A stretch of DNA of 64,000 bases, from positions 205,840,001 to 205,904,000 of the forward strand of contig NW_027362765.1 of assembly GCF_046119375.1 (NCBI RefSeq), read 5' to 3'. Below, in pieces: positions 8,250 to 64,000 of this stretch. The stretch comes from Phyllobates terribilis (Eukaryota). Below the pieces are notes generated by a model. The model had not been told where the DNA came from. It saw only the letters and a list, made by a program, of their open reading frames with translations, and ran no database searches. Numbering within the stretch: position 1 is the stretch's first letter; every line of letters begins with the position of its first letter. The position numbers and the translations under genes were made by a program.

Positions 8250-8757
8250 AAACCAGGGGAGGAGTCCTGAGGAGATAATTTGCATATTCCCACTGCATTT
8301 TGGGGTAAGTGAAGAGTCTCCGCGAGCTCAAAGAACACTGGATTTTGGCTGTTGGAGCTGAAAAGAGGACATCGGTAAACCAGGGGAGGAGTCCTGAGGA
8401 GATAATTTGCATATTCCCACTGCATTTTGGGGTAAGTGAAGAGTCTCCGCGAGCTCAAAGAACACTGGATTTTGGCTGTTGGAGCTGAAAAGAGGACATC
8501 GGTAAACCAGGGGAGGAGTCCTGAGGAGATAATTTGCATATTCCCACTGCATTTTGGGGTAAGTGAAGAGTCTCCGCGAGCTCAAAGAACACTGGATTTT
8601 GGCTGTTGGAGCTGAAAAGAGGACATCGGTAAACCAGGGGAGGAGTCCTGAGGAGATAATTTGCATATTCCCACTGCATTTTGGGGTAAGTGAAGAGTCT
8701 CCGCGAGCTCAAAGAACACTGGATTTTGGCTGTTGGAGCTGAAAAGAGGACATCGGT
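8250..8757 (+). repeat. Four tandem 127-bp monomers forming the CR1 5' UTR
   Basis: Copies start at 8250, 8377, 8504 and 8631 and appear identical. Each contains the octamer ATTTGCAT and a GG|GTAAGT motif. Confidence 0.95.
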
Positions 8758-8830
8758 AAACCGCGCGCCTGCATTTTGAAGCTTTTTTTTAAGCTTTTTT
8801 CACTGTTTTCAGAACATTAACAATAAGAAC

Positions 8831-9793
8831 ATGGAAGAGTCCAGGAGCCATTTGGTGAGCTGCATATCCTGCTACATGTTCACAGACTTGCCAGTGGAAA
8901 AGCCAAACTTCACATGCCAGAAATGCAAGCTTGTGTCCCTGTTGGAGGAAAAGTTGCGAAATCTAGGAGAGAGGTTAACTACCTTGAAAATCATTAAGGA
9001 AGGTGAAGAGTTCTTAGACAGAGCAGAATTATCTCTTCATGATTCAGAAAGAGAAGAAATTCGAACTGCACCTGACGAAACAGAGGAATGGAAGCATGTG
9101 ACCCACAGAAGCAGGAGGATCGAGAGGCAGTCAGCACCCATACTGCTCAGGAACCAGTACCAGGCTCTCACGCAGGAGAACCATGAAGAAATACAGCAAA
9201 ATAAGACTTTGCCAGCAATGAATAACCTTGTAAGCCCTCAGAATCCTCCTGGATGGAGAAAGAAGAATGTTGTGAAGAAAAAACGGAGAGTGGTGGTCAT
9301 GGGGGATTCCCTGTTAAGAGGAACAGAGGCCGCTATCTGCAGACCAGACATAACCTCAAGAGAAATGTGCTGTCTTCCAGGAGCAAAAATTAAAGATGTG
9401 TCTGACAGGATATCAAGACTCTTCAGACCTACAGATCACTACCCATTCCTGCTAATACATGTGGGGACAAATGACACCGCAAGAAAGGACCTGGAAACCA
9501 TCTGCAGTGACTTTGAAGACTTAGGCAAGAAAGTGAAAGAATTGGGAGCGCAGGTGGTCTTCTCATCCATCCTCCCAGTGGATGGCCATGGAACAATGAG
9601 GTGGAATAAGATTCTACAGGTGAACAACTGGCTACGTCGATGGTGCCGTCAACAAGGATTTGGATTTCTGGATCACGGAATGAATTACCTATACGATGGA
9701 CTACTTGCTAGAGATGGGATGCACCTTACGAAGACTGGAAAACATGTATTTGGAAGTCGCCTTGCTACACTCATCAGAAGAGCTTTAAACTAG
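8831..9793 (+). CDS. CR1 ORF1p (320 aa): Cys-rich/coiled-coil N-terminus plus SGNH/GDSL esterase domain
   Basis: Intact ORF with CISC...CQKC, GDSLLRG, HVGTND and DGMHL motifs, ending RALN* as is typical for CR1. Confidence 0.9.
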   Translation: MEESRSHLVSCISCYMFTDLPVEKPNFTCQKCKLVSLLEEKLRNLGERLTTLKIIKEGEEFLDRAELSLHDSEREEIRTAPDETEEWKHVTHRSRRIERQSAPILLRNQYQALTQENHEEIQQNKTLPAMNNLVSPQNPPGWRKKNVVKKKRRVVVMGDSLLRGTEAAICRPDITSREMCCLPGAKIKDVSDRISRLFRPTDHYPFLLIHVGTNDTARKDLETICSDFEDLGKKVKELGAQVVFSSILPVDGHGTMRWNKILQVNNWLRRWCRQQGFGFLDHGMNYLYDGLLARDGMHLTKTGKHVFGSRLATLIRRALN

Positions 9794-9915
9794 AACAATG
9801 TGGGAAGGGAAGCAAAAGGCCAGAAAAAGCCATACAGCTGACAAATATTATTGAGATCTCTGCTACTGGAAGTGGAAAGGAAGAACAAAGACAAAACAAT
9901 TTAAATAATAAAAAT

Positions 9916-12702
9916 ATGGGAGGAAGAGAAACCAATCACAAACTAAAATGTTTTTATACAAATGCACAAAGCATGGGCAACAAACAAGGAGAATTGGAAC
10001 TACTAATGCAGGAAAAGGAATATGATGTCATTGGAATCACTGAAACTTGGTGGGACGATACACATGATTGGAATAAAAGGCTAAAAGGCTACAACTTATT
10101 TGCAAGAAACAGACTTGATAAATGAGGAGGTGTTGCATTGTATGTTAGAAAAGCGTATATCTGCACAGAGATTGAAGCTTCAGAGACTGGGAGTACTGTG
10201 GAAACTGTTTGGGTAAGAATACAAGGAGAGAACAACGGAAAGGACACCATTGTAGGCATTTACTACAGGCCACCTGGGCAAGCTGAAGATATGGATGAAC
10301 TCTTTATGTATCAAATGACCAAGTTCTCCAAAAAATATGACGTAGTGGTCATGGGAGATTTCAACTATCCAGACATTTGTTGGGAATCTCTCTCAAGTAA
10401 AACTAACAGGTCAAGCAAATTCTTATCCTCTCTTGCTGACAACTTTATCTTCCAAAAGGTAGGGGAGTAAACAAGGGGATCTGCTACTTTGGATCTAATC
10501 CTAATAAACAGGGAGGAAATGGTTGAGGAGGTAAAGGTGGCTGGGACCCTAGGAGGCAGCGATCATGCTATTATAGAATTTTGGATAACTAGAGGAGGAA
10601 GACATGTGAAGACTCAAACTTCAAGGTTAGATTTTAGAAAGGCAGATTTTAAGAGACTCAGAAAGAGAATAGGAGGGATCCAATGGCTGGATGTCCTTAA
10701 GGACAAAAATGTCCAGGAAGGATGGGAAATTTTTAAAAATGAGATTCTCAAAGCACAATCGTTAACAATCCCGAAAAGTAGGAAGAATGGGAAGCATTTA
10801 AGGAAACCAGGATGGATGAACACAGAACTTAAACACATGCTAAAAAGAAAGAAAGAAATGTTTATTAAATGGAAAGAGGGAGGCATATCTAAAGAAGATT
10901 ATAATGCAGTCTGCAGATCCTGCAGGGCACGTATCAGGTTAGCTAAAGCGGACAATGAATTAAGGCTTGCAAGAGATGTCAAAAGCAATAAAAAAGGATT
11001 TTGGGGGTATGTCAAAAGTAAAAGAAAAGTCAAAGATGCTATAGGATTTTTACAGGATGAAAATGGAGAAATGGTAAGAGAGGATGTTGAGAAGGCCGAA
11101 CTTTTTAATTCCTATTTTGCATCTGTTTTCTCTCAGAAAGAAAATGTAACATCAACTGATCTTCACTGTCCTTTTAAAGGAATAGAGGAATCCAAGTTAT
11201 CTGTAAACAGAAAGATTGTGAGGGAATATTTAGCTAACATAAATGAGTTCAAGTCTCCAGGTCCAGATGAATTACACCCCAGAGTACTGAAGGAGATCGT
11301 AGAAGAAATTTTAGAACCACTCTCCATAATCTTTGAAAATTCTTGGAGAACAGGAGAAGTCCCAGAAGACTGGAGAAGAGCAAATGTTGTTCCTATGTTC
11401 AAAAAGGGGAAGAAGGTGGACCCAGGGAACTATAGGCCGGTGAGTCTGACTTCTATACCAGGAAAGATCTTTGAACAAATTATTAAACAACATGTATGTA
11501 AGTAAATGGATAAGAATGAAGTGATTAATCAGAGTCAGCATGGGTTTGTAACTAACAAGTCATGTCAGACTAACTTAATTTCCTTCTATGACAGAATCAC
11601 TGACTGGGTGGATCAGGGAAATGCTGTAGATATAGTATATCTTGACTTCAGCAAAGCATTTGACAAAGTATCTCACACCATCCTTATTGAAAAAATGACC
11701 AAGTATGCAATGGACCAGGCAACTGTTAGGTGGATTCATAACTGGCTTAGTGATCGGACTCAAAGGGTGGTTGTAAATGGCTTCACATCCAGCTGGATGA
11801 ATGTCTCAAGTGGGGTACCACAGGGCTCCGTCCTGGGACCTGTATTGTTCAACATCTTTATCAATGATTTAGATGAAGGAATTGAGGGTAAACTGATTAA
11901 ATTTGCTGATGACACAAAGCTAGGAGGGATAGCTAATACTAGAGAAGAGAGAGAGAGGATTCAAAAAGACCTAAATAAACTGGAGCAGTGGGCAGCAACC
12001 AACAGAATGGTTTTTAACAGGGAAAAATGCAAAGTACTACATCTGGGCAATAAAAATGAAAAAAGCATATACAGAATGGGAGGAATAGAGCTAAGCAACA
12101 GTACATGTGAAAAAGACTTAGGTATACTAATAGATCATAGACTGAACATGAGTCAACAGTGTGATGCAGCAGCAAAAAAGGCAAATACAATTCTGGGATG
12201 TATTAACAGAAGCATACAGTCTAGATCACGTGAAGTCATTATCGGTCTTTACTCCTCTTTGGTCAGACCTCATCTGGAATACTGTGTACAGTTTTGGGCA
12301 CCACATTTTAAAAAAGACATAGACAAACTAGAGCAAGTTCAGAGAAGAGCGACCAGAATGGTGACTGGTCTGCAAACCATGTCCTATGAGGAACGGTTGC
12401 AGGATTTGGGAATGTTTAGCTTGCAAAAAAGAAGACTGAGAGGAGACTTAATAGCTGTCTACAAATATGTCAAGGGCTGTCACATTGTAGAAGGATCATC
12501 TTTATTCTCATTTGCACAAGGAAAGACTAGAAGCAATGGGATGAAACTAAATGGGAGGAGACACAGATTAGATATTAGAAAAAACTTTTTGACAGTTAGG
12601 GTGATTAATGAGTGGAACAGGCTGCCACGAGAGGTGGTGAGTTCCCCTTCAATAGACGTCTTCAAACAGAGGCTGGACAGACATCTGTCTGAGATGATCT
12701 AG
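9916..12702 (+). pseudogene. CR1 ORF2 (APE endonuclease + reverse transcriptase) with three in-frame stops
   Basis: Four ORF-track pieces share one frame. APE motifs YTNAQS, GITETWW, MGDFN and SDH are present, as are RT motifs GVPQGSVLGP and FADD. Stops fall at 10123, 10468 and 11503, with no frameshifts. Confidence 0.95.
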
Positions 12703-26448: not shown

Positions 26449-26532
26449 TTAATAAAACAACTGTAATATTAATGGCACGTTGTAGCTGGAGTCACTGCTA
26501 CAGATTTTGGTGTTTGGAGATTGTGGTGTCTC

Positions 26533-29169
26533 AAGAAAGCACATTAGAGGAGAAAGTGGACCCATTGGGACTCCATGAACATCCACCAAGAAGGCACCAT
26601 AGAGAAGAAAATGGACCCATTGGGGCTCCATGAACCACCACCAAGAAAGTACCATAGAGAAGAAAATGGACTTATTGGGACTCTATGAACCACCACCAAG
26701 AAAGCTCCATAGAGAAGAAAATGGACCCATTAGGACTTCATGAACCACCACCAAGAAAGCACCATAGAGAAAAAAATGGACCTATTAGGACTTCATGAAC
26801 CACCACCAAGAAAGCACTATAGAGAATAAAATGGACCTATTGGGACTCCATGAACCACCACCAAGAAAACACTATAGAGAAGAAAATGGACTTATTGGGA
26901 CTCCATGAACCACCACCAAGAAAGCACCATAGAGAAGAAAATGGACCCATTAGGACTTCATGAACCACCACCAAGAAAGCACTATAGAGAAGAAAATTGA
27001 CTTATTGGGACTCGATGAACCACCACCAAGAAAGCACCATAGAGAAGAAAATGGACCTATTGAGACTCAATGAATCACCACCAAAAAAGCACCATAGAGA
27101 AGAAAATGGACCCACTGGGACTCCATGAACCACCACCAGGAAAGCACCATAGAGAAGAAAATGGACCCATTGGGACTCCATGAACCACCACCAAGAAAGC
27201 ACCATAGAGAAGAAAATGGACCCATTGGGGCTCCATGAACCACCACCAAGAAAGTACCATAGAGAAGAAAATGGACTTATTGGGACTCGATGAACCACCA
27301 CCAAGAAAGTACCATAGAGAAGAAAATGGACTTATTGGGACTCGATGAACCACCACCAAGAAAGCACGATAGAGAAGAAAATGGACCCACTGGGACTTCA
27401 TGAACCACCACCAGGAAAGCACCATAGAGAAGAAAATGGACCCATTGGTACTCCATGAACCACCACCAAGAAAGTACCATAGAGAAGAAAATGGACTTAT
27501 TGGGACTCTATGAACCACCACCAAGAAAGCACCATAGAGAAGAAAATGGACCCATTAGGACTTCATGAACCACCACCAAGAAAGCACCATAGAGAAGAAA
27601 ATGGACCCATTAGGACTTCATGAACCACCACCAAGAAAGCACCATAGACAAAAAAATGGACCTATTAGGACTTCATGAACCACCGCCAAGAAAGCACTAT
27701 AGAGAATAAAATGGACATATTGGGACTCCATGAACCACCACCAAGAAAACACTATAGAGAAGAAAATGGACTTATTGGGACTCCATGAACCACCACCAAG
27801 AAAGCACCATAGAGAAGAAAATGGACCCATTAGGACTTGATGAACCACCACCAAGAAAGCACTATAGAGTAGAAAATGGACTTATTGGGACTTGATGAAA
27901 CACCACCAAGAAAGCACCATAGAGAAGAAAATGGACCTGTTGAGACTCAATGAATCACCACCAAGAAAGCACCATAGAGAAGAAAATGGACCCACTGGGA
28001 CTCCATGAACCACCACCAGGAAAGCACCATAGAGAAGAAAATGGACCCATTGGGACTCCATGAACCACCACCAAGAAAGCACCATAGAGAAGAAAATGGA
28101 CCCATTAGGACTTCCTGAACCACCACCAAGAAAGCACTATAGAGAAGAAAATGGACCTATTGGGACTCCATGAACCACCACCAAGAAAGCACTATAGAGA
28201 AGAAAATGGACTTATTGTGACTCCATTAACCACCACCAAGAAAGCACCATAGAGAATAAAATGGACCCATTAGGACTTCATGAACCACCACCAAGAAAGC
28301 ACTATAGAGGAGAAAATGGACTTATTGGGACTCCATGAACCACCACCAAGAAAGCACCATAGAGAAGAAAATGGACCTATTGGGACTCAAGGAATCACCA
28401 CCAAGAAAGCACCATAAGAGAAGAAAATGGACTTATTGGGACTCCATGAACCACCACCAAGAAAGCACCATAGAGAAGAAAATGGACTTATTGGGACTCC
28501 ATGAACCACCACCAAGAAAGCACCATAGAGAAGAAAATGGACCCACTGGGACTCCATGAACCACCACCCGGAAAGCACCATAGAGAAGAAAATGGACCCA
28601 TTGGGACTCCATGAACCACCACCAAGAAAGCACCATAGAGAAGAAAATGGACCCATTGGGACTCCATGAACCACCACCAAGAAAGCACCATAGAGAAGAA
28701 AATGGACCCATTGGGACTCCATGAACCACCACCAAGAAAGCATTATAGAGGAGAAAATGGAGTTATTGGGACTCCATGAACCACCACCAAGAAAGCACCA
28801 TAGAGAAGAAAATGGACCTATTGGGACTCAAGGAATCACCACCAAGAAAGCACCATAAGAGAAGAAAATGGACTTATTGGGACTCCATGAACCACCACCA
28901 AGAAAGCACCATAGAGAAGAAAATGGACTTATTGGGACTCCATGAACCACCACCAAGAAAGCACCATAGAGAAGAAAATGGACCCACTGGGACTCCATGA
29001 ACCACCACCCGGAAAGCACCATAGAGAAGAAAATGGACCCATTGGGACTCCATGAGCCACCACCAAGAAAGCACCATAGAGAAGAAAATGGACCCATTGG
29101 GACTCCATGAACCACCACCAAGAAAGCACCATAGAGAAGAAAATGGACCCATTGGGACTCCATGAACCA
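26533..29169 (+). repeat. 55-bp satellite array (~48 copies) with higher-order duplications
   Basis: Unit catagagaagaaaatggacccattgggactccatgaaccaccaccaagaaagcac, period 55 (26598, 26653, 26708). Variant patterns recur at offsets 880 and 441. Confidence 0.97.
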
Positions 29170-29963
29170 CTCATATATATGGATGTATTACCAATCACAA
29201 TAGATTTTGGATGAGATAAAATTGTCACAATATAATGTCCAGATATCTCAGATAAGTCTATAGTCAGAAGACATGCATGTGTCTTTAGGAATAGTGGTAA
29301 CATCTCGTACACCATGCTGTCATTTAATGACAGTTTAAGACCATCCCCCGTTAATGACACTAATCAGCAGGATTGTGTATGATTCCCTCACTTCACATCA
29401 TTTTGTGGCTCAATCAAGCTGCTAATGAGTTGTTAATTGATAATTAAAGACATGATTCCACGACGCATGCAGTATGTGAGTTGATAGAGATGGATTATGT
29501 CAGTAAGTGGCATTTACCAGAACTTTACATATATATGTAAACTTCTAGTAAATATCATTAGCAGAAATTAGGACAAGTCTTAATAGTTTTGCCGATAACT
29601 TGCCCAATGTGTAATTCCTGAAATTACAAAGACGAAAAAAAATAATATAGTGATTATGTTTGTAAAGCACTTTACAAATCAATGGCACTATATATATGAG
29701 TAAAATAATTATTTAAATAAATAAAATATAAGATTTAATCATTGATAGCAAATTATATACATAACAAAACAGCAAATAAATAAGGCATCAAATCCACAAA
29801 GTTGATTCTAAAAGCAGTCCTGTCACTGGATTAGATAAAATAGCTTCCAAATATTTTTTGCATTTCTCTAAATCATTGTCTCAACGCGTTTCTCTAGTCT
29901 AAATTGGGGCAGTTCAACAGATGGTGATTTAATTTATAAATAAAATGGGGTCTCATTTACATA

Positions 29964-31597
<1,634 letters not shown>

Positions 31598-41776: not shown

Positions 41777-44700
41777 CCGTATATTCCGGCGTATAAGACG
41801 ACCTGGTGTATAAGACGACCCCCCTACTTTCCTGTTAAAATATAGAGTTTAGGATATATTCACCGTATAAGACTACCCCTTTTCCAACGCATACCAAACA
41901 CCGGTAAAAATTTTAAAAAAACAGATTTGAATTTAACATGGTCCTTTTTTAATTTAAATTCTTATGACATGCAGGTATATAGCAGGAAAACTGTCACTCA
42001 TAAACATATTAAAATAGGGGGGACCCCACGTCATTTTTTTGGGGGGTCCCCCATTCTAATAGCTAGTAAAGGCTAGGTATTCAGCTGGGGGCTGATATTA
42101 GTAGCCTGGGAAGCTCCGTGGGTATTACCCCCTTCCCAGACTTCAAACATCTGCCCCAGCCGTCTGCTTAACCTCCGCTAGAGACTATAATGATGGTGGA
42201 TCCCACGCCAATTTTCTTTTTAAAAAATCCTTTATTTTAACACTAAATGACAATTGAGGGGTTAATAAAGATGCAGTCCCTAAATTATTATTAATTTTGT
42301 AATTAATTTTTCCCAAAAATGTTGACGTGGGCTTCGCCATATTTTTGTGTCCAGCCAGGTACAGCAGGCAGGAACGGGCTGCCCCCAACCACCAGCTGCC
42401 TATTTGTACCTGGCCGGACACAACAATATAGGGAAGCCCTTTTTTTTTTAATTATTTCATGAAATAATTAAAAAAAAAAAGACGTGGGGCTTCGCCCTAT
42501 TTTTGTGTCCAGCCAGGTACAACTAGGCAGCTGGGGGCTGGAATCTGCAGCGCAGGGAGGCCCAAGCTTTCTGGCCCCCCCCCCGCTGCAAATTGCAGTC
42601 CGCAGCCACCCCGGAAAATGGCGCGTTCATAGAAGCGCCATCTTCTGGCGCTGTACCCAACTCATCCAGGGCCCTGGTGCGGTGGCTCACTGGGTAATAA
42701 AGGGGTTAAGGCCAGCTTGGCATTATCAGCTGGCCCTAAGCCCGAAATTCATGGGGTCACGCCAATATTAGACATGACCACCATGAATTTCTAGTAAAGT
42801 AATTAAAAAAAACACAAACACCCAGAATAAAGTCCTTTAATTGAAATAAAGACACAATTTTTTAATGTTCTAAATTAAACTATACTTACCATCACGCCCA
42901 TTCCAGCTGAAGCCAACGATCTCCTGCAATAAAAGTAAAATAATAAAGCAACCTCATCCTTACCTCTCCATGGTTCCCAGGACCGGTCCAGCTCTGCTAC
43001 ATTCACATGACAGGCTGTACCGCAGCAGAACGCTGCCGTTCAGCTTGCCATGCGGCAGACACTGAGAAGCGCAGGCATGCTTGTGCTCCTCAGTGTCTGA
43101 CTGTGACGGCATCCAGATGAGCCGAGATCATGTCCAATGAACTCGGCTCACCTCATGCACGTCACTGACAGCGTGGGAAAATTCTCCTGCTCCCCGCATG
43201 CGCAGTAGAAGTTTCCCACGCTGTCAGTGACGGACGTCCAGGAGGTGAGCTGAGTTCATTGCCGGCTCATCTGGATGCCGTCACAGCGAGACACTGAGGA
43301 GCGCAAGCATGCCTGCGCTTCTCAGTGTCTGCGGGATGACAGGCTGGATGGCAGCGTTCTGCTGCGGTCCAGCCTGTCATCTCGATGTAGCAGAGCTGAA
43401 GCTGTCCTGGGAACCATGGAAAGGTAAGGATGATGTTGGTTTATTATTTTACTTTTATTGCAGGAGATCGTTGGCTTCAGCTGGAATGGGCGTGATGGTA
43501 AGTATGGTTTAATTTAGAACAATAAAGAATTGTGTGTTTATTTCAATTAAAGGACTTTATTCTGGGTGTTTGTGTTTTTTTTAACTTTTACTATGGGGTT
43601 AATAATGGGGGTGTCTTATAGACGCCTCTCCATTTCTAACCTGGGCTTGATGTCAGCTGGCATTATAAGCTGACATCAACCCCAGCCCTATTACCCCACT
43701 GCCACCGCACCAGGGCAGCGTGGAAGAGCGAGGCTAAGTGCCAGAATTGGCGCATCCTATGAATGCGCCATTTCTGGGGCGGCTGACGGCTGGTGTTTCT
43801 AGCCTGGGAGGGGGCCAATATTCATGGCTCCCTTCCTGGGCTATTAATATCAGCCCCCAGCTGTCTGCCTAGCCTTTGCTAGCTATTAAATTAGGGGGGA
43901 CCCCACGTCATTTTTTTGGGGGGGTCCCCCATTTTAATAGCTAGTAAAGGCTATGTATTCAGCTGGGGGCTGATATTAGTAGCCTGGGAAGCTCCGTGGG
44001 TATTACCCCCTTCCCAGGCTTCAAACATCTGCCCCAGCCGTCTGCTTAACCTCCGCTAGAGCCTAAAATTAAGGGGAACCCCACGCCAATTTTTTTTTAA
44101 ATAAATCCGTTATTTTAACACTAGATGACAAGTACAGTAACCAGCACTGTCACTGTACTTCATATATATGTGACTGACATGTTTCTATCTATCTAATCTA
44201 TGTGTGATGCTCTATCTTTCTGTTATAAATTGTCGGGTACAGATGCTGAATTGCCGGCCGGCTTTTTTAAAGAGACGGTGCATGAAAACACTATTATTTG
44301 TTTTAATAAATCCTTTACACTAAATGACAAGTACAGTAAGCAACACTGTCACTGTACTTCATATATATGTGACTGACATGTTTCTATCTATCTAATCTAT
44401 GTGTGATGCTCTATTCTTTCTATTCTAAATTGTCGGGTGCCGGCTTATGCCGCTGCTGAATTGCCGGCTTTTCATATATTGTCACAGAAGCGATGCGAAA
44501 TTCCCAGCTCCGGACACAGCGCAGCGCTTCTGTGACAAGTGAAAGCTGTCGGCACAGAAGCCCTGCGCTGTGTCCGGAGCTAGGAATACGCAGCGATGTG
44601 TCAGTTTCAGCACAGAAGCGCTGACTATCTGGACCTACCGCCGCCGTATTTTAACTCCCTCCACCTTATATTAACTCCGACATGGCAGGGATACGGCCAC

Positions 44701-45388: not shown

Positions 45389-45470
45389 GTGAGTACACCT
45401 TAGAGCACAAAGGTCGGCCTGTGTCCAAAGTGTTAGGAAAATTCAGACTACACCTGATTTGTATTATAAG

Positions 45471-47467
45471 TGTTATGCACACGCCCGGACTGACTGGCGT
45501 GTGCGTGTTTATGTAGTGATTCCACTGTGCCATGAACCGGAGAGTGCCTGGAGGGGCGTAACTAAGTATCTGCCCGATCCGACCAAGGTGGCACGACGGC
45601 ATACGACGCCAGTGCACCAAGGAGGAACCGAGCAGAGAGACCAGGTGCTACTCCAGGACAGACCCCGGACACGGCTGTTGACCCACACAGGGGAATACAG
45701 GAACAGACTGGTAGGCTGGCACAACTGGTATGCAGGCAGGCGGGTATGCAGGCAGGGGGGTACAGGCAAGCACAGCTAGAGTGCAGACAGGGAGGCACTA
45801 GCAGGTAGGAACACAGGCGGGATAGGACCCAGTACACACTGGGACTCAGGAACAATACAGGCAGAGGGGTACAGGCAAGCACAGCTAGAGTGCAGACAGG
45901 GAGGCACTAGCAGGTAGGGACACTGGCGGGATAGGACCCAGTACACACTGGGACTCAGGAACAGAACCACAGATGTGGCGGACAAACACAGCAGAGTGAG
46001 GCCGCCCAGAGAGGTGAGCGAGAACAGGGCAGGACAAAGCCGCCTGGAGCGGTGAGCAAGAGTAGAGCAGGACAAGGCCGCCAGGAGCGGTGAGCAAAGG
46101 GTCAGAGCTGAGCGAGACTGCCGGAGCAGTGAGCAAGAGTGGAGCAAGACGAGACCGCCTGGAGCGGTGAGCAAGAGTGGAGCAAGACTGCCGGAGCAGT
46201 GAGCAAAAGGATAACAGCGGAGCGAGACTGCCGGAGCAGTGAGCAAAAGGGTCAGAGCGGAGCAAGGCTGCCGGAGCAGCGAGCAAAGGAGTCAGAGCAG
46301 GCTAGAACCGCCGGAGCGGTAAGCAAAGGAGTCAGAGCAGGCTAGAACCGCCGGAGCGGTGAGCAAAGGAGTCAGAGCAGGCTAGAACCGCCGGAGCGGT
46401 GAGCAAAGGAGTCAGAGCAGGCTAGAACCGCCGGAGCGGTGAGCAAAGGAGTCAGAGCAGGCAAGGCTGAGCAGGGGGGACAGGGCTCTGTTCACACGGA
46501 ACAGACAGGAAGGGAAAGGCAGAGCCAGATACCCACAGGGTACTTGCAGTGAAGTAGCGAGTGGACCACAAACTCACAAACGGGAGTACAGAGACAACAA
46601 GCAGGAGTTAGGTACGAGTTCAGACTCTGCAGAAAAAGGAAGGGAACGGACATAGAGGCAAAACAGGTAAAGGATAGGAGAGAGTTCAGACTGGAACTGA
46701 GTGTATGGAGGAGACCGACACTGCAGCGGAATACAGGAGCGGGTCTGGGAATACGGCCCCCAGAGAGGCAGGATGAACAGGCAAGGAGCGTGTTCAGACA
46801 GGACAGACAAGATACAGGAGCGGGTCTAGGTAATCGGCCCCTAGAAGGCAGGAGGAACAGGCTAGGAGCGTGTTCAGACAGGACAGACAAGATACCAGAG
46901 CGGGTCTAGATAATCAGCCCCTAGAAGGCGGGAGGAACAGGCTAGGAGCGTGTTCAGACAGGCCTGGAAATACAGCCTCCAGGATAGGCAGACAAGAGAA
47001 CACAGACAGGACTCAGTTCAGACACGGGAACTGATACCGCAAGGCAGGAGACATAGACAGGACTCAGTTCAGACACGGGAACTGAAACCGCAAGGCAGGA
47101 GACAGACAGGACTCAGTTCAGACACGGGAACAGATACCGCAAAGCAGGAGACAAAGAACGGGACCTGGCACCTTCAGAGTGCAAGCACACACTGAAAGAA
47201 ACACTATGCTCAGGCAGGGATAGATGGGAGCAGCTGAGCTATATACCAGGTGACAGACAGCAATAGGCTGAGGACGCACAAGGGGTGTGACCCACAGCAG
47301 GTACAAAAAGCAGGAAGTGATCGGGCGCCGCCCTTAAGCAGCAGAAGCAGACACAAACAGACAGCATGGAGGGAAGCCAGAGAGACATTCTGGACTGGAG
47401 ATCAAGTGCGCGCTCTTGCACAGTGGGAGATGGACCACCATGCAAGGACGCCGCCAGGTATGTTACA
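45471..47467 (-). repeat. 3' LTR (1997 bp)
   Basis: Direct repeat of 49478-51594. Contains internal 109-, 40-, 80- and ~49-bp tandem arrays. Confidence 0.95.
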
Positions 47468-49338
47468 GTACCCCCCCCCTTACGCCCCCTCTTCTTCAGG
47501 CCTGCCAGAATCTTCCGCAGGGAATTCGAGGACCAGTCGTTCACTTCAAGGAGATCACTTCCACTGTCCACAGGAAAAACTGATCTCATCTGGTTAGCTA
47601 GGATGCTACCTCCTATCCAGCCATCCTCAGCAACAGACGAAACGGGTGGAGTACCAGGAACAGCACACAAGGAAGTCTCTCTCCACATATTTTCAGGTGG
47701 CACCCCAGAGGGTACAGGAGACAACTGGAAGTCCTTCACTGGGTTGGAGGGGGACAGAGACTTGAGGGTAATCTCTGCTTCGAGGTACATCTTGTCAAGC
47801 TTACAGGAAGAAATAGACGGGTTATCAGGTACATAATGAGGAAAAGTCACTGTCTCTTTGTTATCTGGTGGTACCCCGGAGGATTCAGGAAACAACTGGA
47901 GGTCCCCCGCCGGGTCAGAAGAGTGCAGAGGCTCAGAGAAAACATCTGCTTCAGAGTACACTAGGTCGGGCTCACTGGACGAAGCAGGCGAGGTATCGGG
48001 TACCGAGTATAGGAAAGTCTCTGTCCATTCACCACCAGGTGGCACCCCGAAGGGTTCTGGAGACAACTGGCGGTCCTCCGCCTGGTCAGAGGGGTGTAGA
48101 GACTCACGGGTAACCTCTGCTTCAGAGTACACTAGGTCGGACTCACTGGACGAAGCAAGCGAGGTATCAGATCCAGGATATAGGAAAGTCTCTGTCCATT
48201 CACCACCAGGTGGCACCCAGAAGGGTTCTGGAGAAAACTGGAGGTCCTCCGCCTGGTCGGAGGGGTGTAGAGACTCGGGAGTAACCTCTGCTTCGGAGTA
48301 CACTAGGTTGGACTCACTGGACGAAGCGAGCGAGGTATCAGGTACAGAGTATAGGAGAGTCTCTGTCCTTTCGCTACCAGGTAGCACCCCGAAGGGTTCA
48401 GGAGACAACTGGAGGTCCTCCGCCTGGTCGGAGGGGTGTAGAGACTCGGGGGTAACTACCACTTTGGGGTACCCTTTGTCAGGCTCACAGGACGAAGCGG
48501 ACAAAGTATTGAGTACCGGGTGTAGAGAAGTCTCTCTCCATTTGTCATCGAGTGGTATCCCGGAGGATTCAGGAGGCAACAGGGGGTCCTCCACCAGGTA
48601 GCAGAGGTGCACAGACTCTGAGGTAACCACAGCTTTGGAGCATCCTTGGACATGCACACCGGTAAAAGTGGGTGAAGCATCTGATGCCGGGTGCAGGAAG
48701 TTCTCCTGTGTGGAGTCTGGATGGGCAGAAGTCTCTTCGGGCAGGAGAACTGGTGCACTACCCACGCACATTACCAGTTGGGGCTTCTCCAGGATACAGG
48801 GAGATGAAGCTTCAGTAGGGACTTCAAGGTTGGGGTCAGGAGGTCTCAGGGAGGACAGACCCTGGCGTGACGGCTTGCCTCTACGTCTAGCACGTCTGGA
48901 CTGCCTCTTGAGGTTGGGAGAAGTATTCCGGAAAGCGTAGTCACCCTGTGAGGATTCTGGGTGGGCAGTAGTCTCATTGGGCTGGAGGACTATTGCGCTA
49001 CCCACACACATTACCCGTCGGGGCTGCTCCGGGATATTGGGAAGTGAAGCTTCAGCAGGGGCTTCAGGGTTAGGGTCCTCGAAGACCATACGAAAGGCCA
49101 CCAGGAAGGCCTGCAGGTCAAGGACGACAGGATCCCATGCTTCCCATAGGGGGGTGACCCATTTCAAGGCATCACCCGCTAGGTAGTCAATCATAAAGGC
49201 CACTTTAGCCCAATCTGAAGGAAAATAGAGAGGGTAGGCCTTAAAGTGTAGCATGCATTGCTCCACAAATGCACGACACTGTCTTGGATCCCCATAGTAA
49301 CGTGGCGGATCCGCAGGAACGAGAGCTGATAGATCCAT
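47239..49338 (-). CDS. 699-aa ORF: Ty3/Gypsy Gag capsid N-domain (PEG10/RTL/DUF4939-like), acidic Pro/Ser repeats and a degenerate integrase-chromodomain tail
   Basis: PPRYYGDPRQCRAFVEQC...AKVAFMIDYLAGDALKWVTPLWE...FLVAFRMVFEDP; six ~57-aa repeats (171-bp period at 47946, 48117, 48288); ends KKRGRKGGGTVT across the PPT and continues into the 3' LTR. Confidence 0.72.
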   Translation of the reverse strand: MDLSALVPADPPRYYGDPRQCRAFVEQCMLHFKAYPLYFPSDWAKVAFMIDYLAGDALKWVTPLWEAWDPVVLDLQAFLVAFRMVFEDPNPEAPAEASLPNIPEQPRRVMCVGSAIVLQPNETTAHPESSQGDYAFRNTSPNLKRQSRRARRRGKPSRQGLSSLRPPDPNLEVPTEASSPCILEKPQLVMCVGSAPVLLPEETSAHPDSTQENFLHPASDASPTFTGVHVQGCSKAVVTSESVHLCYLVEDPLLPPESSGIPLDDKWRETSLHPVLNTLSASSCEPDKGYPKVVVTPESLHPSDQAEDLQLSPEPFGVLPGSERTETLLYSVPDTSLASSSESNLVYSEAEVTPESLHPSDQAEDLQFSPEPFWVPPGGEWTETFLYPGSDTSLASSSESDLVYSEAEVTRESLHPSDQAEDRQLSPEPFGVPPGGEWTETFLYSVPDTSPASSSEPDLVYSEADVFSEPLHSSDPAGDLQLFPESSGVPPDNKETVTFPHYVPDNPSISSCKLDKMYLEAEITLKSLSPSNPVKDFQLSPVPSGVPPENMWRETSLCAVPGTPPVSSVAEDGWIGGSILANQMRSVFPVDSGSDLLEVNDWSSNSLRKILAGLKKRGRKGGGTVTYLAASLHGGPSPTVQERALDLQSRMSLWLPSMLSVCVCFCCLRAAPDHFLLFVPAVGHTPCASSAYCCLSPGI
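47471..47481 (-). other. Polypurine tract
   Basis: The minus strand reads AAGGGGGGGGG-TAC immediately before the 3' LTR (TGTAACA). Confidence 0.85.
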
Positions 49339-49465
49339 CTGGACGGTGCGTAATTCGCCTGGAACTCAGCTAAGGAAAAAAAAAATTTATTTATTTATTT
49401 TAATGCATGTATTCGCTGGAAAACTTCTCAGAGAGCGAAGGCCGTGGGGCTCAACGGGAACCATG

Positions 49466-49475
49466 GCCTGAGCAT
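49466..49475 (-). other. Primer-binding site, non-tRNA (self-priming type)
   Basis: Minus-strand ATGCTCAGGC lies 2 nt after the 5' LTR. It lacks the TGG start of a tRNA PBS and is complementary to LTR position 51342-51333. Confidence 0.7.
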
Positions 49476-49477
49476 GC

Positions 49478-51594
49478 TGTTATGCACACGCCCGGACTGA
49501 CTGGCGTGTGCGTGTTTATGTAGTGATTCCACTGTGCCATGAACCGGAGAGTGCCTGGAGGGGCGTAACTAAGTATCTGCCCGATCCGACCAAGGTGGCA
49601 CGACGGCATACGACGCCAGTGCACCAAGGAGGAACCGAGCAGAGAGACCAGGTGCTACTCCAGGACAGACCCCGGACACGGCTGTTGACCCACACAGGGG
49701 AATACAGGAACAGACTGGTAGGCTGGCACAACTGGTATGCAGGCAGGCGGGTATGCAGGCAGGGGGGTACAGGCAAGCACAGCTAGAGTGCAGACAGGGA
49801 GGCACTAGCAGGTAGGAACACAGGCGGGATAGGACCCAGTACACACTGGGACTCAGGAACAATACAGGCAGAGGGGTACAGGCAAGCACAGCTAGAGTGC
49901 AGACAGGGAGGCACTAGCAGGTAGGGACACTGGCGGGATAGGACCCAGTACACACTGGGACTCGGGAACAGAACCACAGATGTGGCGGACAAACACAGCA
50001 GAGTGAGGCCGCCCAGAGAGGTGAGCGAGAACAGGGCAGGACAAAGCCGCCTGGAGCGGTGAGCAAGAGTAGAGCAGGACAAGGCCGCCAGGAGCGGTGA
50101 GCAAAGGGTCAGAGCTGAGCGAGACTGCCGGAGCAGTGAGCAAGAGTGGAGCAAGACGAGACCGCCTGGAGCGGTGAGCAAGAGTGGAGCAAGACTGCCG
50201 GAGCAGTGAGCAAAAGGATAACAGCGGAGCGAGACTGCCGGAGCAGTGAGCAAAAGGGTCAGAGCGGAGCAAGGCTGCCGGAGCAGCGAGCAAAGGAGTC
50301 AGAGCAGGCTAGAACCGCCAGAGCGGTAAGCAAAGGAGTCAGAGCAGGCTAGAACCGCCGGAGCGGTGAGCAAAGGAGTCAGAGCAGGCTAGAACCGCCG
50401 GAGCGGTGAGCAAAGGAGTCAGAGCAGGCTAGAACCGCCGGAGCGGTGAGCAAAGGAGTCAGAGCAGGCTAGAACCGCCGGAGCGGTGAGCAAAGGAGTC
50501 AGAGCAGGCAAGGCTGAGCAGGGGGGACAGGGCTCTGTTCACACGGAACAGACAGGAAGGGAAAGGCAGAGCCAGATACCCACAGGGTACTTGCAGTGAA
50601 GTAGCGAGTGGACCACAAACTCACAAACGGGAGTACAGAGACAACAAGCAGGAGTTAGGTACGAGTTCAGACTCTGCAGAAAAAGGAAGGGAATGGACAT
50701 AGAGGCAAAACAGGTAAAGGATAGGAGAGAGTTCAGACTGGAACTGAGTGTATGGAGGAGACCGACACTGCAGCGGAATACAGGAGCGGGTCTGGGAATA
50801 CGGCCCCCAGAGAGGCAGGATGAACAGGCAAGGAGCGTGTTCAGACAGGACAGACAAGATACAGGAGCGGGTCTAGGTAATCGGCCCCTAGAAGGCAGGA
50901 GGAACAGGCTAGGAGCGTGTTCAGACAGGACAGACAAGATACCGGAGCGGGTCTAGGTAATCGGCCCCTAGAAGGCGGGAGGAACAGGCTAGGAGCGTGT
51001 TCAGACAGGACAGACAAGATACCGGAGCGGGTCTAGATAATCGGCCCCTAGAAGGCGGGAGGAACAGGCTAGGAGCGTGTTCAGACAGGCCTGGAAATAC
51101 AGCCTCCAGGATAGGCAGACAAGAGAACACAGACAGGACTCAGTTCAGACACGGGAACTGATACCGCAAGGCAGGAGACATAGACAGGACTCAGTTCAGA
51201 CACGGGAACTGAAACCGCAAGGCAGGAGACAGACAGGACTCAGTTCAGACACGGGAACAGATACCGCAAAGCAGGAGACAAAGAACGGGACCTGGCACCT
51301 TCAGAGTGCAAGCACACACTGAAAGAAACACTATGCTCAGGCAGGGATAGATGGGAGCAGCTGAGCTATATACCAGGTGACAGACAGCAATAGGCTGAGG
51401 ACGCACAAGGGGTGTGACCCACAGCAGGTACAAAAAGCAGGAAGTGATCGGGCGCCGCCCTTAAGCAGCAGAAGCAGACACAAACAGACAGCATGGAGGG
51501 AAGCCAGAGAGACATTCTGGACAGGAGAACAAGTGCGCGCTCTTGCACAGTGGGAGATGAACCACCATGCAAGGACGCCGCCAGGTATGTTACA
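49478..51594 (-). repeat. 5' LTR (2117 bp)
   Basis: Differs from the 3' LTR by one extra 40-mer, one extra 80-mer and about 8 substitutions (manual count). Confidence 0.95.
51367..51372 (-). promoter_or_regulatory. Putative LTR TATA box (predicted TSS near 51342)
   Basis: TATATA lies ~220 bp inside the LTR start on the minus strand, 30 nt upstream of the PBS-complementary segment. Confidence 0.6.
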
Positions 51595-52517
51595 ATAAGC
51601 AAGAAAAATAAATCTCTCTTTTAATTCCCTCTTTCTGAATTGATTTTTATTGGAATGTTTTTATAACTTTGTCTTCATAAATTACAACACCAGTGTTGAC
51701 TTGTTTTTGAGCAATCTATAAAATCAGACGTAACTTTCTTTACAAAGTCCAGAGACCGTAACAATACCAGTAAAGAAGAATTTTACATCATTATAAAATG
51801 TTACATTCAGTTTTAAAAAATATATATATATTTTTCACATTAAGTTTGTTAATTAGGTGCATTACTCCATAGTCTGTGATATTCTGCCTTTTTGTTACAT
51901 TGAAACATGGCTGCCTTTGAATACAATGGGCATCATTCAGATGACCCATGGATGAGATCCAAATTCTATTTGTTTGAGGGTTTTTTGTTACAGATCTATT
52001 AATTTGAATTGGCAATTTTGATCATAAAATTGAATCAAACACAGAAATGTTTCCATTAGTTTCCCCATAGGCTATAGACTATAATTGGTATGTTTTCTAT
52101 CCATGATAGAACATGTATGTAAAAATGGACATCTGAATTAGACCTTACATTGGTAACATGAAGCTGTATGGAAGGGAGGGAGAGCAGGGGAAGACATAAT
52201 ATATATGCTAATCACTGGGGGATTGCTGGAGAAAAATATACTGCTGTCGAACAGGGGACCTCTGATGACTGTGTCCCACGCTGAAGGGAGGTGAACAGAT
52301 TGAACTAGACTTTCCTTCAGTAAGGATATGTTTCAGTTTTCTGCTCAAGTCCTTTATCTAAATACTTTGGTATTGCAGAGTAACTTCTTGGCACACCCAG
52401 CACTAATGGTGCACACAGGTACACATCTGGACCCAGGGCTGCATTGTCTACATGGAGGTGACTTGAAGGCAGCATCATATTTAAAACCAAAGCATTAGAA
52501 AGCAATTTTATTATTAA

Positions 52518-62628: not shown

Positions 62629-64000
62629 ATGGGCAATGTGAGTGTCAGGGGACGGGGAAGCAGACGTGATGGTGATGGTGCATGCAGAGGCTGAGCGAAT
62701 GGCCAAGCTGAAATTGTGCCATAACAAGCACCCACATCTTGTCACCCGGCCTTCCTGTCCCAATTACTAGGTGACCGCAGCACACCACTATTGAACCCAG
62801 AGCAGTGTCGAAAGGTTGTTGATTGGATAGCAGATAATGCTTCCAGTCATTTTGCCACCACCACCACCACCCTTTCTTTCACATGGTCAAGTTTCAGTAG
62901 CCGTGAGTCTGGACCGCATATTCCTCACCCTGATACTCCTTCCTCCCACCATGCCGAGTGCCCGGAGACAACTGATCCCACACTTGGACACTCCGAAGAG
63001 CTGTTCACTTTTCCATTTATAGATTCGGGCCTCTCAACCGACCCGTTTCAAGCAGGGCAAGAGAAGATCGCATGTAGCGATGCCCAAATATTTGAGCAGC
63101 CACGATCACATGAAGGCGATTGTGGGAAACTGTCACAAGAGGTGGATGATGATGAGACACAATTGCCAGAAAGTCAGGAGGAGGACCAGGGTGAGGAAGT
63201 GGAAGATGAGGTGGTGGAAGATGAAGTCTCTGACCCAACCTGGCAAGGTGACATGCAGAGCGAGGACAGCAGCACACAGTGGGAGGGAGGCATAGCACCA
63301 AAGCAGGCAGGAACAAACAGTGAAGTGGCCACAGACACAAGAAGGGCAACTGTTCCCCGGAACACAAACAAGACGGAAGTTGCCAGTACATCTGTTAGGT
63401 CTTCCCGAGTCTGTTTTTTTCTTAAAGACTGTGCAGAAAACCCCAAAAAGGCCATTTGCACTACCTGCCAGGCCACCATCAGCAGGGGTAGCAAAACTAA
63501 AAGCCTGACCATCACCAGCATGCTCAGGCACATGACAGCAAAGCACCCGACTAGGTGGGCCGAACAGTGTCTGCAGGGTGAAACCACTGCTTGTTCCGCT
63601 GTTGTGCGTGCACGCCAATCCCCTGTCCATAGCGCATGCGAAGATGACTCTCGCCCTGCACCTGTCATTGCGCACTCGCAACTACCACCATCAGCAAGCT
63701 TGTCCCAGCGCAGCATTCAGTTGTCTATACCCCAGTCATTGGAACGCAAGCACAAATACGCAGCCACCCACTCACAGGCCACACTACTAAACTCGCACCT
63801 TTCTCGAATGCTTGCGCTCGAAATGTTGCCTTTTAGGCTCGTGGAGACAGAAGATTTCCACAATCTGATGGCGGCGGCCGTCCCTTGGTCCCCAGCCGCC
63901 ACTATTTTTCCCGGTGTGCCGTCCCCGCATTACACAAGCACGTGTCCCAGAACATTAGCTGTACCCTCAACAACGCAGTTACTGGGAAGGTCCACATAAC
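62629..64000 (+). pseudogene. hAT transposase with BED zinc finger, disrupted
   Basis: The ATG at 62629 is in frame with ORF 62791 but has stops at 62692 and 62722. BED finger AICTTC...SMLRHMTAKH, then LALEMLPFRLVETEDF. A frameshift near 63885 restores VPSRHYFSRCAVPALHKHV. Confidence 0.88.

Follow-up and report, generated by a model that had tools for sequence, protein, structure and literature searches.

The question raised by this locus is why an LTR element that has lost its enzymes should keep a long open reading frame. We analysed the whole stretch of 64,000 nucleotides, here called the window, in which the element occupies the minus strand. A first-pass annotation, made from the letters of the sequence, had proposed a mobile non-autonomous family whose protein, a capsid domain with a repetitive tail, is under selection. 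The features to which the argument refers are the following.

Whole element, minus strand: LTR-interior-LTR with an ATAAG TSD on both sides (self-comparison of the window)
51595..51599, no strand: right TSD, ATAAG (self-comparison)
49478..51594, minus: 5' LTR with TG...CA ends, 2117 bp; contains tandem repeats of 16, 109, 38-40, 80 and 51 bp
51367..51372, minus: TATA-like box
51333..51342, minus: predicted self-primer, complementary to the PBS; lies 30 nt after the TATA box, where the transcript probably starts
47468..49477, minus: interior between the LTRs, 2010 bp
49466..49475, minus: PBS (non-tRNA, self-priming type)
49387..49464, minus: short upstream ORF starting at the ancestral ATG of Gag
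49369..49410, minus: AATAAA-rich stretch, pyrimidine tract and YAG, splice-acceptor-like
47239..49338, minus: 699-codon ORF from the ATG at 49338 to the stop; 623 codons in the interior and 76 in the 3' LTR, with the stop at the TATA box of that LTR
49072..49314, minus: CA-NTD (Gag capsid N-terminal lobe), aa 9-89, under purifying selection
48928..49077, minus: ~50-aa repeat 1
48868..48912, minus: basic patch KRQSRRARRRGK, homologous by position to what follows the CTD in Gag; kept in both waves
48688..48837, minus: ~50-aa repeat 2
47602..48627, minus: six 171-bp (57-aa) acidic Pro/Ser repeats, omega ~1, frame never closed by shared variants
47470..47658, minus: decayed integrase chromodomain and Pol C-terminus, in frame
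47471..47496, minus: polypurine tract (PPT)
45471..47467, minus: 3' LTR, 1997 bp; relative to the 5' LTR, a few substitutions and a difference of two repeat units (one of 40 bp, one of 80 bp)
45466..45470, no strand: left TSD, ATAAG (self-comparison)

The loss of enzymes was readily confirmed, as no PR, RT, RH or IN domain match was obtained in the 2010-bp interior. To count relatives we searched the 10.57-Gb genome with the exact 29-nt LTR-PBS junction, which returned 5,362 matches (0 for the reversed control), while the LTR start sequence returned 22,224. The first 61 junction matches on contig C1, with one tandem partner left out, formed a sample of 60 copies; since the junction lies outside the ORF, this sample was not chosen for open frames, and junction-based sampling favours young copies. 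All 60 lacked pol and had interiors of 1.5-2.5 kb. The ORF was open from its ATG to the PPT in 51 copies, carried internal stops in 8 and had lost its start in 1, so that the retention test proposed in the first-pass annotation found the frames mostly unbroken. Perfect 5-bp TSDs flanked 56 of the 59 copies scored, median LTR-pair divergence was 0, and 40 of 40 scored matches were copies 99-100% identical. With thousands of junctions, TSDs and near-identical LTR pairs, the mobile non-autonomous family is established: it replicates by retrotransposition without enzymes of its own, and it is young and actively spreading.

The family holds several subfamilies and recombinants. In 4 of the 60 copies (L095, L119, L123 and L131) a 279-bp in-frame duplication has produced a tandem second CA-NTD, the two NTDs having diverged; single-NTD copies include recombinant forms. 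Tandem LTR-interior-LTR arrays with ~4 kb spacing occur at C1:86492389-86504731 and C2:776094905-776103177. Among copies the LTRs (in this element e.g. 49783-50298 and 45776-46291) vary from 1.3 to 2.2 kb through internal tandem repeats, their lengths can differ within one young copy, and their strong purine/pyrimidine strand skew gives rise to incidental ORFs. More than half of the element's sequence words were present in sequencing runs labelled with three organisms, and no RNA run was among those listed.

The 699-codon frame that had drawn attention to the locus is real, and its length is incidental: 623 codons belong to the interior, and the final 76 arise where the frame runs on into the 3' LTR. 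A full 699 aa is encoded by 11 of the 30 closest copies, and 17 of the 30 are frame-shifted in the G-run of the PPT; in a wider sample the frame across the PPT was retained in 43 of 50 open copies.

The ~90-aa capsid domain reported at the start of this frame was confirmed, as the N-terminal lobe alone. The DUF4939 check was run on the ORF with Pfam profiles and gave a match at aa 11-86 scoring 32.4 bits, above the curated cut-off of 29. The ORF covered positions 22-92 of the 198 in the Ty3_capsid profile, and full-length Gags resident in the same genome aligned over aa 11-104 at 43-52% identity. A custom profile of the capsid CTD found nothing at E<10 in the six frames of the element, while the same profile matched 107 of 150 relatives. 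In a representative protein library the best 150 of 1124 matches all lay over the NTD; the CA-NTD was matched there and the repeats were not. A protein homologue search with the whole ORF or aa 1-100 found none, a PDB sequence search returned E2 enzymes only, at insignificant scores, and every ESM Atlas match lay below 0.9 and serves as a lead only.

The predicted structure of the CA-NTD has a Gag CA lobe fold (pLDDT 88). Compared with capsid lobes of Arc, dArc, PNMA2 and Ty1, the model scored Z 6.4-9.5, which is middling for a helical bundle; the best match was the dArc1 N-lobe (residues 47-122, Z 9.5), N- and C-lobes were tied (Z 8.1-9.5), and the fold alone cannot assign the lobe. Foldseek with the same model gave no match at E<=0.001, its top rows being Arc and PNMA2 capsids. 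A complex prediction of the CA-NTD with two full-length capsid copies, run without alignments, scored 0.02. Judged from the sequence comparisons, the capsid part is the N-terminal lobe, with CTD and zinc knuckle absent. A complete Gag builds its shell with NTD, CTD and NC, and this protein is not one; nor is the element an autonomous chromovirus with PR, RT, RH, IN and chromodomain, since a decayed chromodomain remnant is all that is left of these.

The remainder of the frame is organized as first described, with two ~50-aa repeats 240 bp apart followed by six 57-aa units at exact 171-bp spacing. The six units are 79% alike, and copies carry between 4 and 9 of them. Residues 238-580 contain 59 D/E against 13 K/R, and the basic patch was retained by 59 of the 60 young copies and by most of the older wave. 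On the opposite strand the repeats also contain a frame of 253 open codons (47840-48601, plus strand), which has no Pfam match. The decayed chromodomain-like tail was also recognized correctly: full-length relatives in the same genome align in frame to aa 561-623 over their chromodomain end with a score of 76, against 30+/-4 for shuffled sequences (0 of 200 shuffles reached 76), and the nucleotide level agrees. The conserved chromodomain motif has been lost, Pfam Chromo found no match in the tail, and in 33 copies, about half, a 195-bp in-frame deletion removes the remnant.

The same design recurs in an older wave of at least 150 copies with 88-95% protein identity. There a single frame extends from the CA-NTD to the PPT and takes in remnants of the Gag end, the protease and the chromodomain together with the same units; the protease catalytic motif is gone. 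In full-length relatives the gag and pol frames are offset by -1, which means that the older-wave lineage joined them. Measured against one reference, 29 old copies had stops at 19 positions, 17 of them private. Some older-wave copies (L185-L214; e.g. L186, L192 and L197) are still open from the first Gag ATG, and in others an A/T-expanded leader with the YAG is already present. Full-length chromoviruses in the same genome carry Gag, PR, RT, RH, IN and chromodomain; 2 of 16 sampled had LTR pairs >99% identical and pol frames >1,000 codons. A search for an autonomous partner with a matching LTR end gave 14 pattern matches, all of them family members, older-wave copies, or 3' or solo LTR flanks, and no close helper was identified among the top Ty3_capsid families sampled.

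The annotation had placed the whole ORF under selection, and the copies allowed this claim to be divided by region. Changes shared among copies have passed through replication, so that a contrast of shared with private changes reads selection. Changes after insertion are neutral, with 152 nonsynonymous and 61 synonymous (N:S) among all private changes and a within-old ratio of ~1 (0.8-1.5). In the CA-NTD, the codon model gave omega 0.47 (2dlnL 10.1, P~0.002), shared N:S was 37:34 (P=0.05 against its own private changes, P=0.004 against all private changes), and the net old-versus-young ratio was 0.27 (CI 0.14-0.53). Synonymous divergence of the CA-NTD is as high as elsewhere, which places the constraint on the protein and not on the RNA. 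Compared with omega 0.19 in full-length Gags, the constraint on the CA-NTD is relaxed but real. For linker and repeats the codon models, which ignore recombination, gave omega 1.33 and 1.10, not different from 1; N:S was 89:41 for shared and 90:42 for private changes, and net old-versus-young ratios in the tail were 0.86-1.1 with wide intervals (0.4-3).

Stops and indels gave another picture of the same tail. None of 292 shared substitutions created a stop, against 8 of ~222 private ones (P~0.001), the expected share being 3-4%. All shared internal ORF indels were in frame (279, multiples of 171, 195, net -96, 3 and 6); by comparison, this held for 33 of 106 LTR indels and for 1 of 10 leader indels. 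Gains of repeat units are in frame by construction and count little. In the indel listing 6 of 16 raw entries were not multiples of 3; these represent one 438-bp deletion class that the aligner split into five pieces (net -96) and two changes in the PPT G-run. The shared/private count left out L102 unit 1, L126 unit 5/6, second NTDs and the linker of five deletion-class copies. The tail is selected against stops and frameshifts while its sequence is neutral. Selection on the ORF thus held for the CA-NTD as sequence and for the tail as frame; amino-acid constraint on the repeats did not.

The leader resembles that of self-priming elements. Ten nucleotides of the LTR, 30 nt beyond the TATA box, are the complement of the PBS; this match is found in 55 of the 60 young copies and in 12 of 18 from the older wave, and self-primer and PBS change together between the young family, the older wave and full-length relatives. 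Self-priming of the Tf1/Sushi type, a trait of that group (PMC6317226), is therefore predicted. The 5' leader is ~2 kb long with 7 ATGs, and the upstream ORF, which has a strong start context, runs for 19-31 codons before its stop in 59 of the 60 copies. All 60 copies have an AATAAA cluster together with a pyrimidine tract and YAG, the latter two 30 nt before the ATG; the region may act as a splice acceptor or poly(A) signal, or it may reflect slippage. We found no strong splice donor anywhere in the element, and its LTR lacks an AATAAA. Contigs from 5 sequencing runs were uninformative for expression or splicing, as they consisted of genomic LTR flanks with no joint at the acceptor-like site; a joint of 484 nt, which is not divisible by 3 and whose exact junction was ambiguous, appeared in a contig from 1 of 4 runs.

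What, then, might an enzyme-less element gain from half a capsid and a tail kept only in frame? The reading we prefer, with a probability of roughly one half, is that this Tf1/Sushi-type element encodes a selected CA-NTD with a frame-only tail, and that the protein likely docks on the capsid shells of relatives and favours packaging of its own RNA. Full-length chromoviruses in the same genome would supply RT, IN and shell; the protein would be made from the second ATG; and its CA-NTD would join helper capsomers as RTL8 does with PEG10. The tail may be a disordered spacer, or the passage of the ribosome may itself be needed, for tether time or RNA stability, and the basic patch could provide a grip on RNA in place of the lost knuckle. 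If the product acted purely in trans, then broken copies should amplify equally. Since selection is seen on every replicating lineage, the element that encodes the protein is probably the one to benefit, and the gain would fall mainly on the encoding copy through the same RNA or the same cell. If the ORF were read from a spliced RNA, then a tether to the same RNA would fail. A point against docking is that the CA-NTD is ~50% identical to the sampled full-length Gags and has a higher omega than theirs; moreover RTL8 lowers PEG10 particle yield, the opposite of a benefit (PMC11684626). The ATG-rich leader, the acceptor-like site for which we found no strong donor, and the failure to find a close autonomous partner with these LTRs among the families sampled also count against this reading. 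More tentatively, the lineage may have evolved, over at least two waves, a capsid adaptor: one or two CA-NTDs joined to an acidic tether of unconstrained sequence, by which the element's own RNA would take over helper particles. The lineage would then be a living precursor, in thousands of copies, of RTL8/LDOC1-type genes and an LTR counterpart of cis-preference parasitism.

The frame could instead serve the RNA, with translation across the interior shielding genomic RNA from nonsense-mediated decay or routing it to assembly and the CA-NTD a separate, minor matter. Such a role would fit an omega of ~1 without stops over linker, repeats and the protease and chromodomain remnants in two waves, the varying number of units, the deletion of the chromodomain remnant in half the copies, and the joining of gag and pol frames despite the absent protease catalytic motif. 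Because it leaves the protein-level constraint and duplication of the CA-NTD unexplained, and because the repeats lengthened the ORF where the interior might just have shrunk, we find it somewhat doubtful as the whole account; it is compatible with docking, and the two are not exclusive. If nothing were selected, then youth alone would keep the frames open and chance would have expanded the 171-bp units, as a median LTR-pair divergence of 0, the neutral repeat sequence and the open antisense frame might suggest. This is very improbable: the shared-versus-private contrasts of stops and indels, an omega below 1 for the CA-NTD in three analyses, the same design in the older wave and the 3-26 stops in the other five frames across the repeats largely refute neutrality.

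Selection might also have been exerted by the host, the family being a dispersed restriction factor in which the CA-NTD fusion poisons helper capsids in the manner of RTL8 or p22 and hosts favour expressed open copies. The lobe architecture is that of RTL8, which reduces PEG10 particle yield, the acidic tail is bulky, and in zebrafish Bik-1/2 a host has already put a young Gag-only family to use (PMC12067270). We consider this explanation unlikely, since the family depends on those capsids yet amplifies massively now, selection acts on all replicating lineages and not on a few fixed loci, and changes after insertion are neutral. Least credible of all is that the locus is itself a domesticated host gene of RTL/SIRH type. 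DUF4939 and the CA-NTD-only architecture recall LDOC1 and RTL8, and the term proto-domesticated gene had been offered on first description; it does not suit one of thousands of young, LTR-flanked copies with intact LTRs and TSD.

Returning to an element that would dock on the shells of its relatives, we compared it with known systems. It is a Tf1/Sushi derivative by its TG...CA LTR ends, 5-bp TSD, PPT and Sushi-type Gag capsid, and its LTR ends fit the Sushi motifs in Table 3 of PMC3601003. With the Tf1/Sushi chromoviruses of the same genome it shares these LTR features, the self-primer 30 nt after the TATA box, a CA-NTD ~50% identical, ~80% of a U5 segment and a homologous Pol end; it differs from them in having no coiled coil, CTD, zinc knuckle, PR, RT, RH, IN or working chromodomain. 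It fits the operational definition of TR-GAG given in PMC6022998 (LTRs with GAG or GAG+AP only). Wheat RLG_Sabrina_SA and RLG_WHAM are described in PMC9744471 as semi-autonomous, gag only or gag-pro, of high copy number and long co-evolved with helpers, and some Sabrina derivatives as encoding short capsid-like proteins. Like these plant elements ours combines LTRs and a gag remnant with high copy number and no RT/IN; whereas they are described there as suppliers of Gag, its lone N-lobe cannot supply a shell, and it is set apart by a frame-constrained, neutral repeat tail and its animal Tf1/Sushi lineage.

Among host genes the closest resemblance is to RTL8, LDOC1 and RTL5 (Mart/SIRH), which have a Sushi-type CA-NTD (DUF4939) without CTD under purifying selection. 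RTL8, a CA-NTD-only protein, is reported to bind the PEG10 capsid and to be incorporated into PEG10 particles (PMC11684626), and RTL5 is reported to be strongly acidic (PMC10604271). In contrast to these fixed, immobile loci of 1-4 copies without LTRs, the element is mobile, present in thousands of copies, and retains intact LTRs and cis signals. Zebrafish Bik-1/Bik-2 and chicken ENS-1/ERNI are likewise young vertebrate non-autonomous LTR families with Gag and without pol; as described in PMC12067270 they are ERV-derived, with a full-length Gag and a demonstrated host function, whereas ours is a half capsid of Ty3/gypsy origin. Ty1 p22/p18 also is a self-encoded capsid fragment. The analogy with p22 drawn in the first-pass annotation chose the wrong lobe, however: p22 is the CA-CTD (per PDB titles), comes from an autonomous element and restricts it, whereas here the sequence aligns to the N-lobe and belongs to a separate non-autonomous family. 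RTL8 is the better analogue, and we infer that a fragment of RTL8 type acting for its own element is the best reading.

No earlier description of the family or of its design was found in the open-access literature; it may be catalogued in Repbase or Dfam. Gag-only non-autonomous elements were already known; Xenopus gag-only LTR elements and the internal ORFs of MaLR also belong to this background. The notable result is a selected half capsid with a frame-only tail maintained over two waves and in thousands of copies. Non-autonomous LTR elements are commonly seen as non-coding or as suppliers of full Gag, and here half a capsid and a sequence-free frame are kept. The copies offer a ready-made set of natural variants in which to ask how LTR elements without enzymes come to be packaged and whether translation itself is a cis signal, and they bear on how CA-NTD-only genes such as RTL8 and LDOC1 could arise before domestication.

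The window contains several other features. A broken LINE with an SGNH/esterase-like ORF1 and RT (8780-12702, plus strand) is preceded by four identical 127-bp repeats (8250-8762). There is a 55-bp satellite of 48 copies (26532-29170), a Tc1-like transposase fragment (30369-31109, minus strand), a MITE-like 322-bp inverted repeat, 93% complementary (42803-43584), and a BED-finger (hAT-like) ORF at 62725-63999 on the plus strand.
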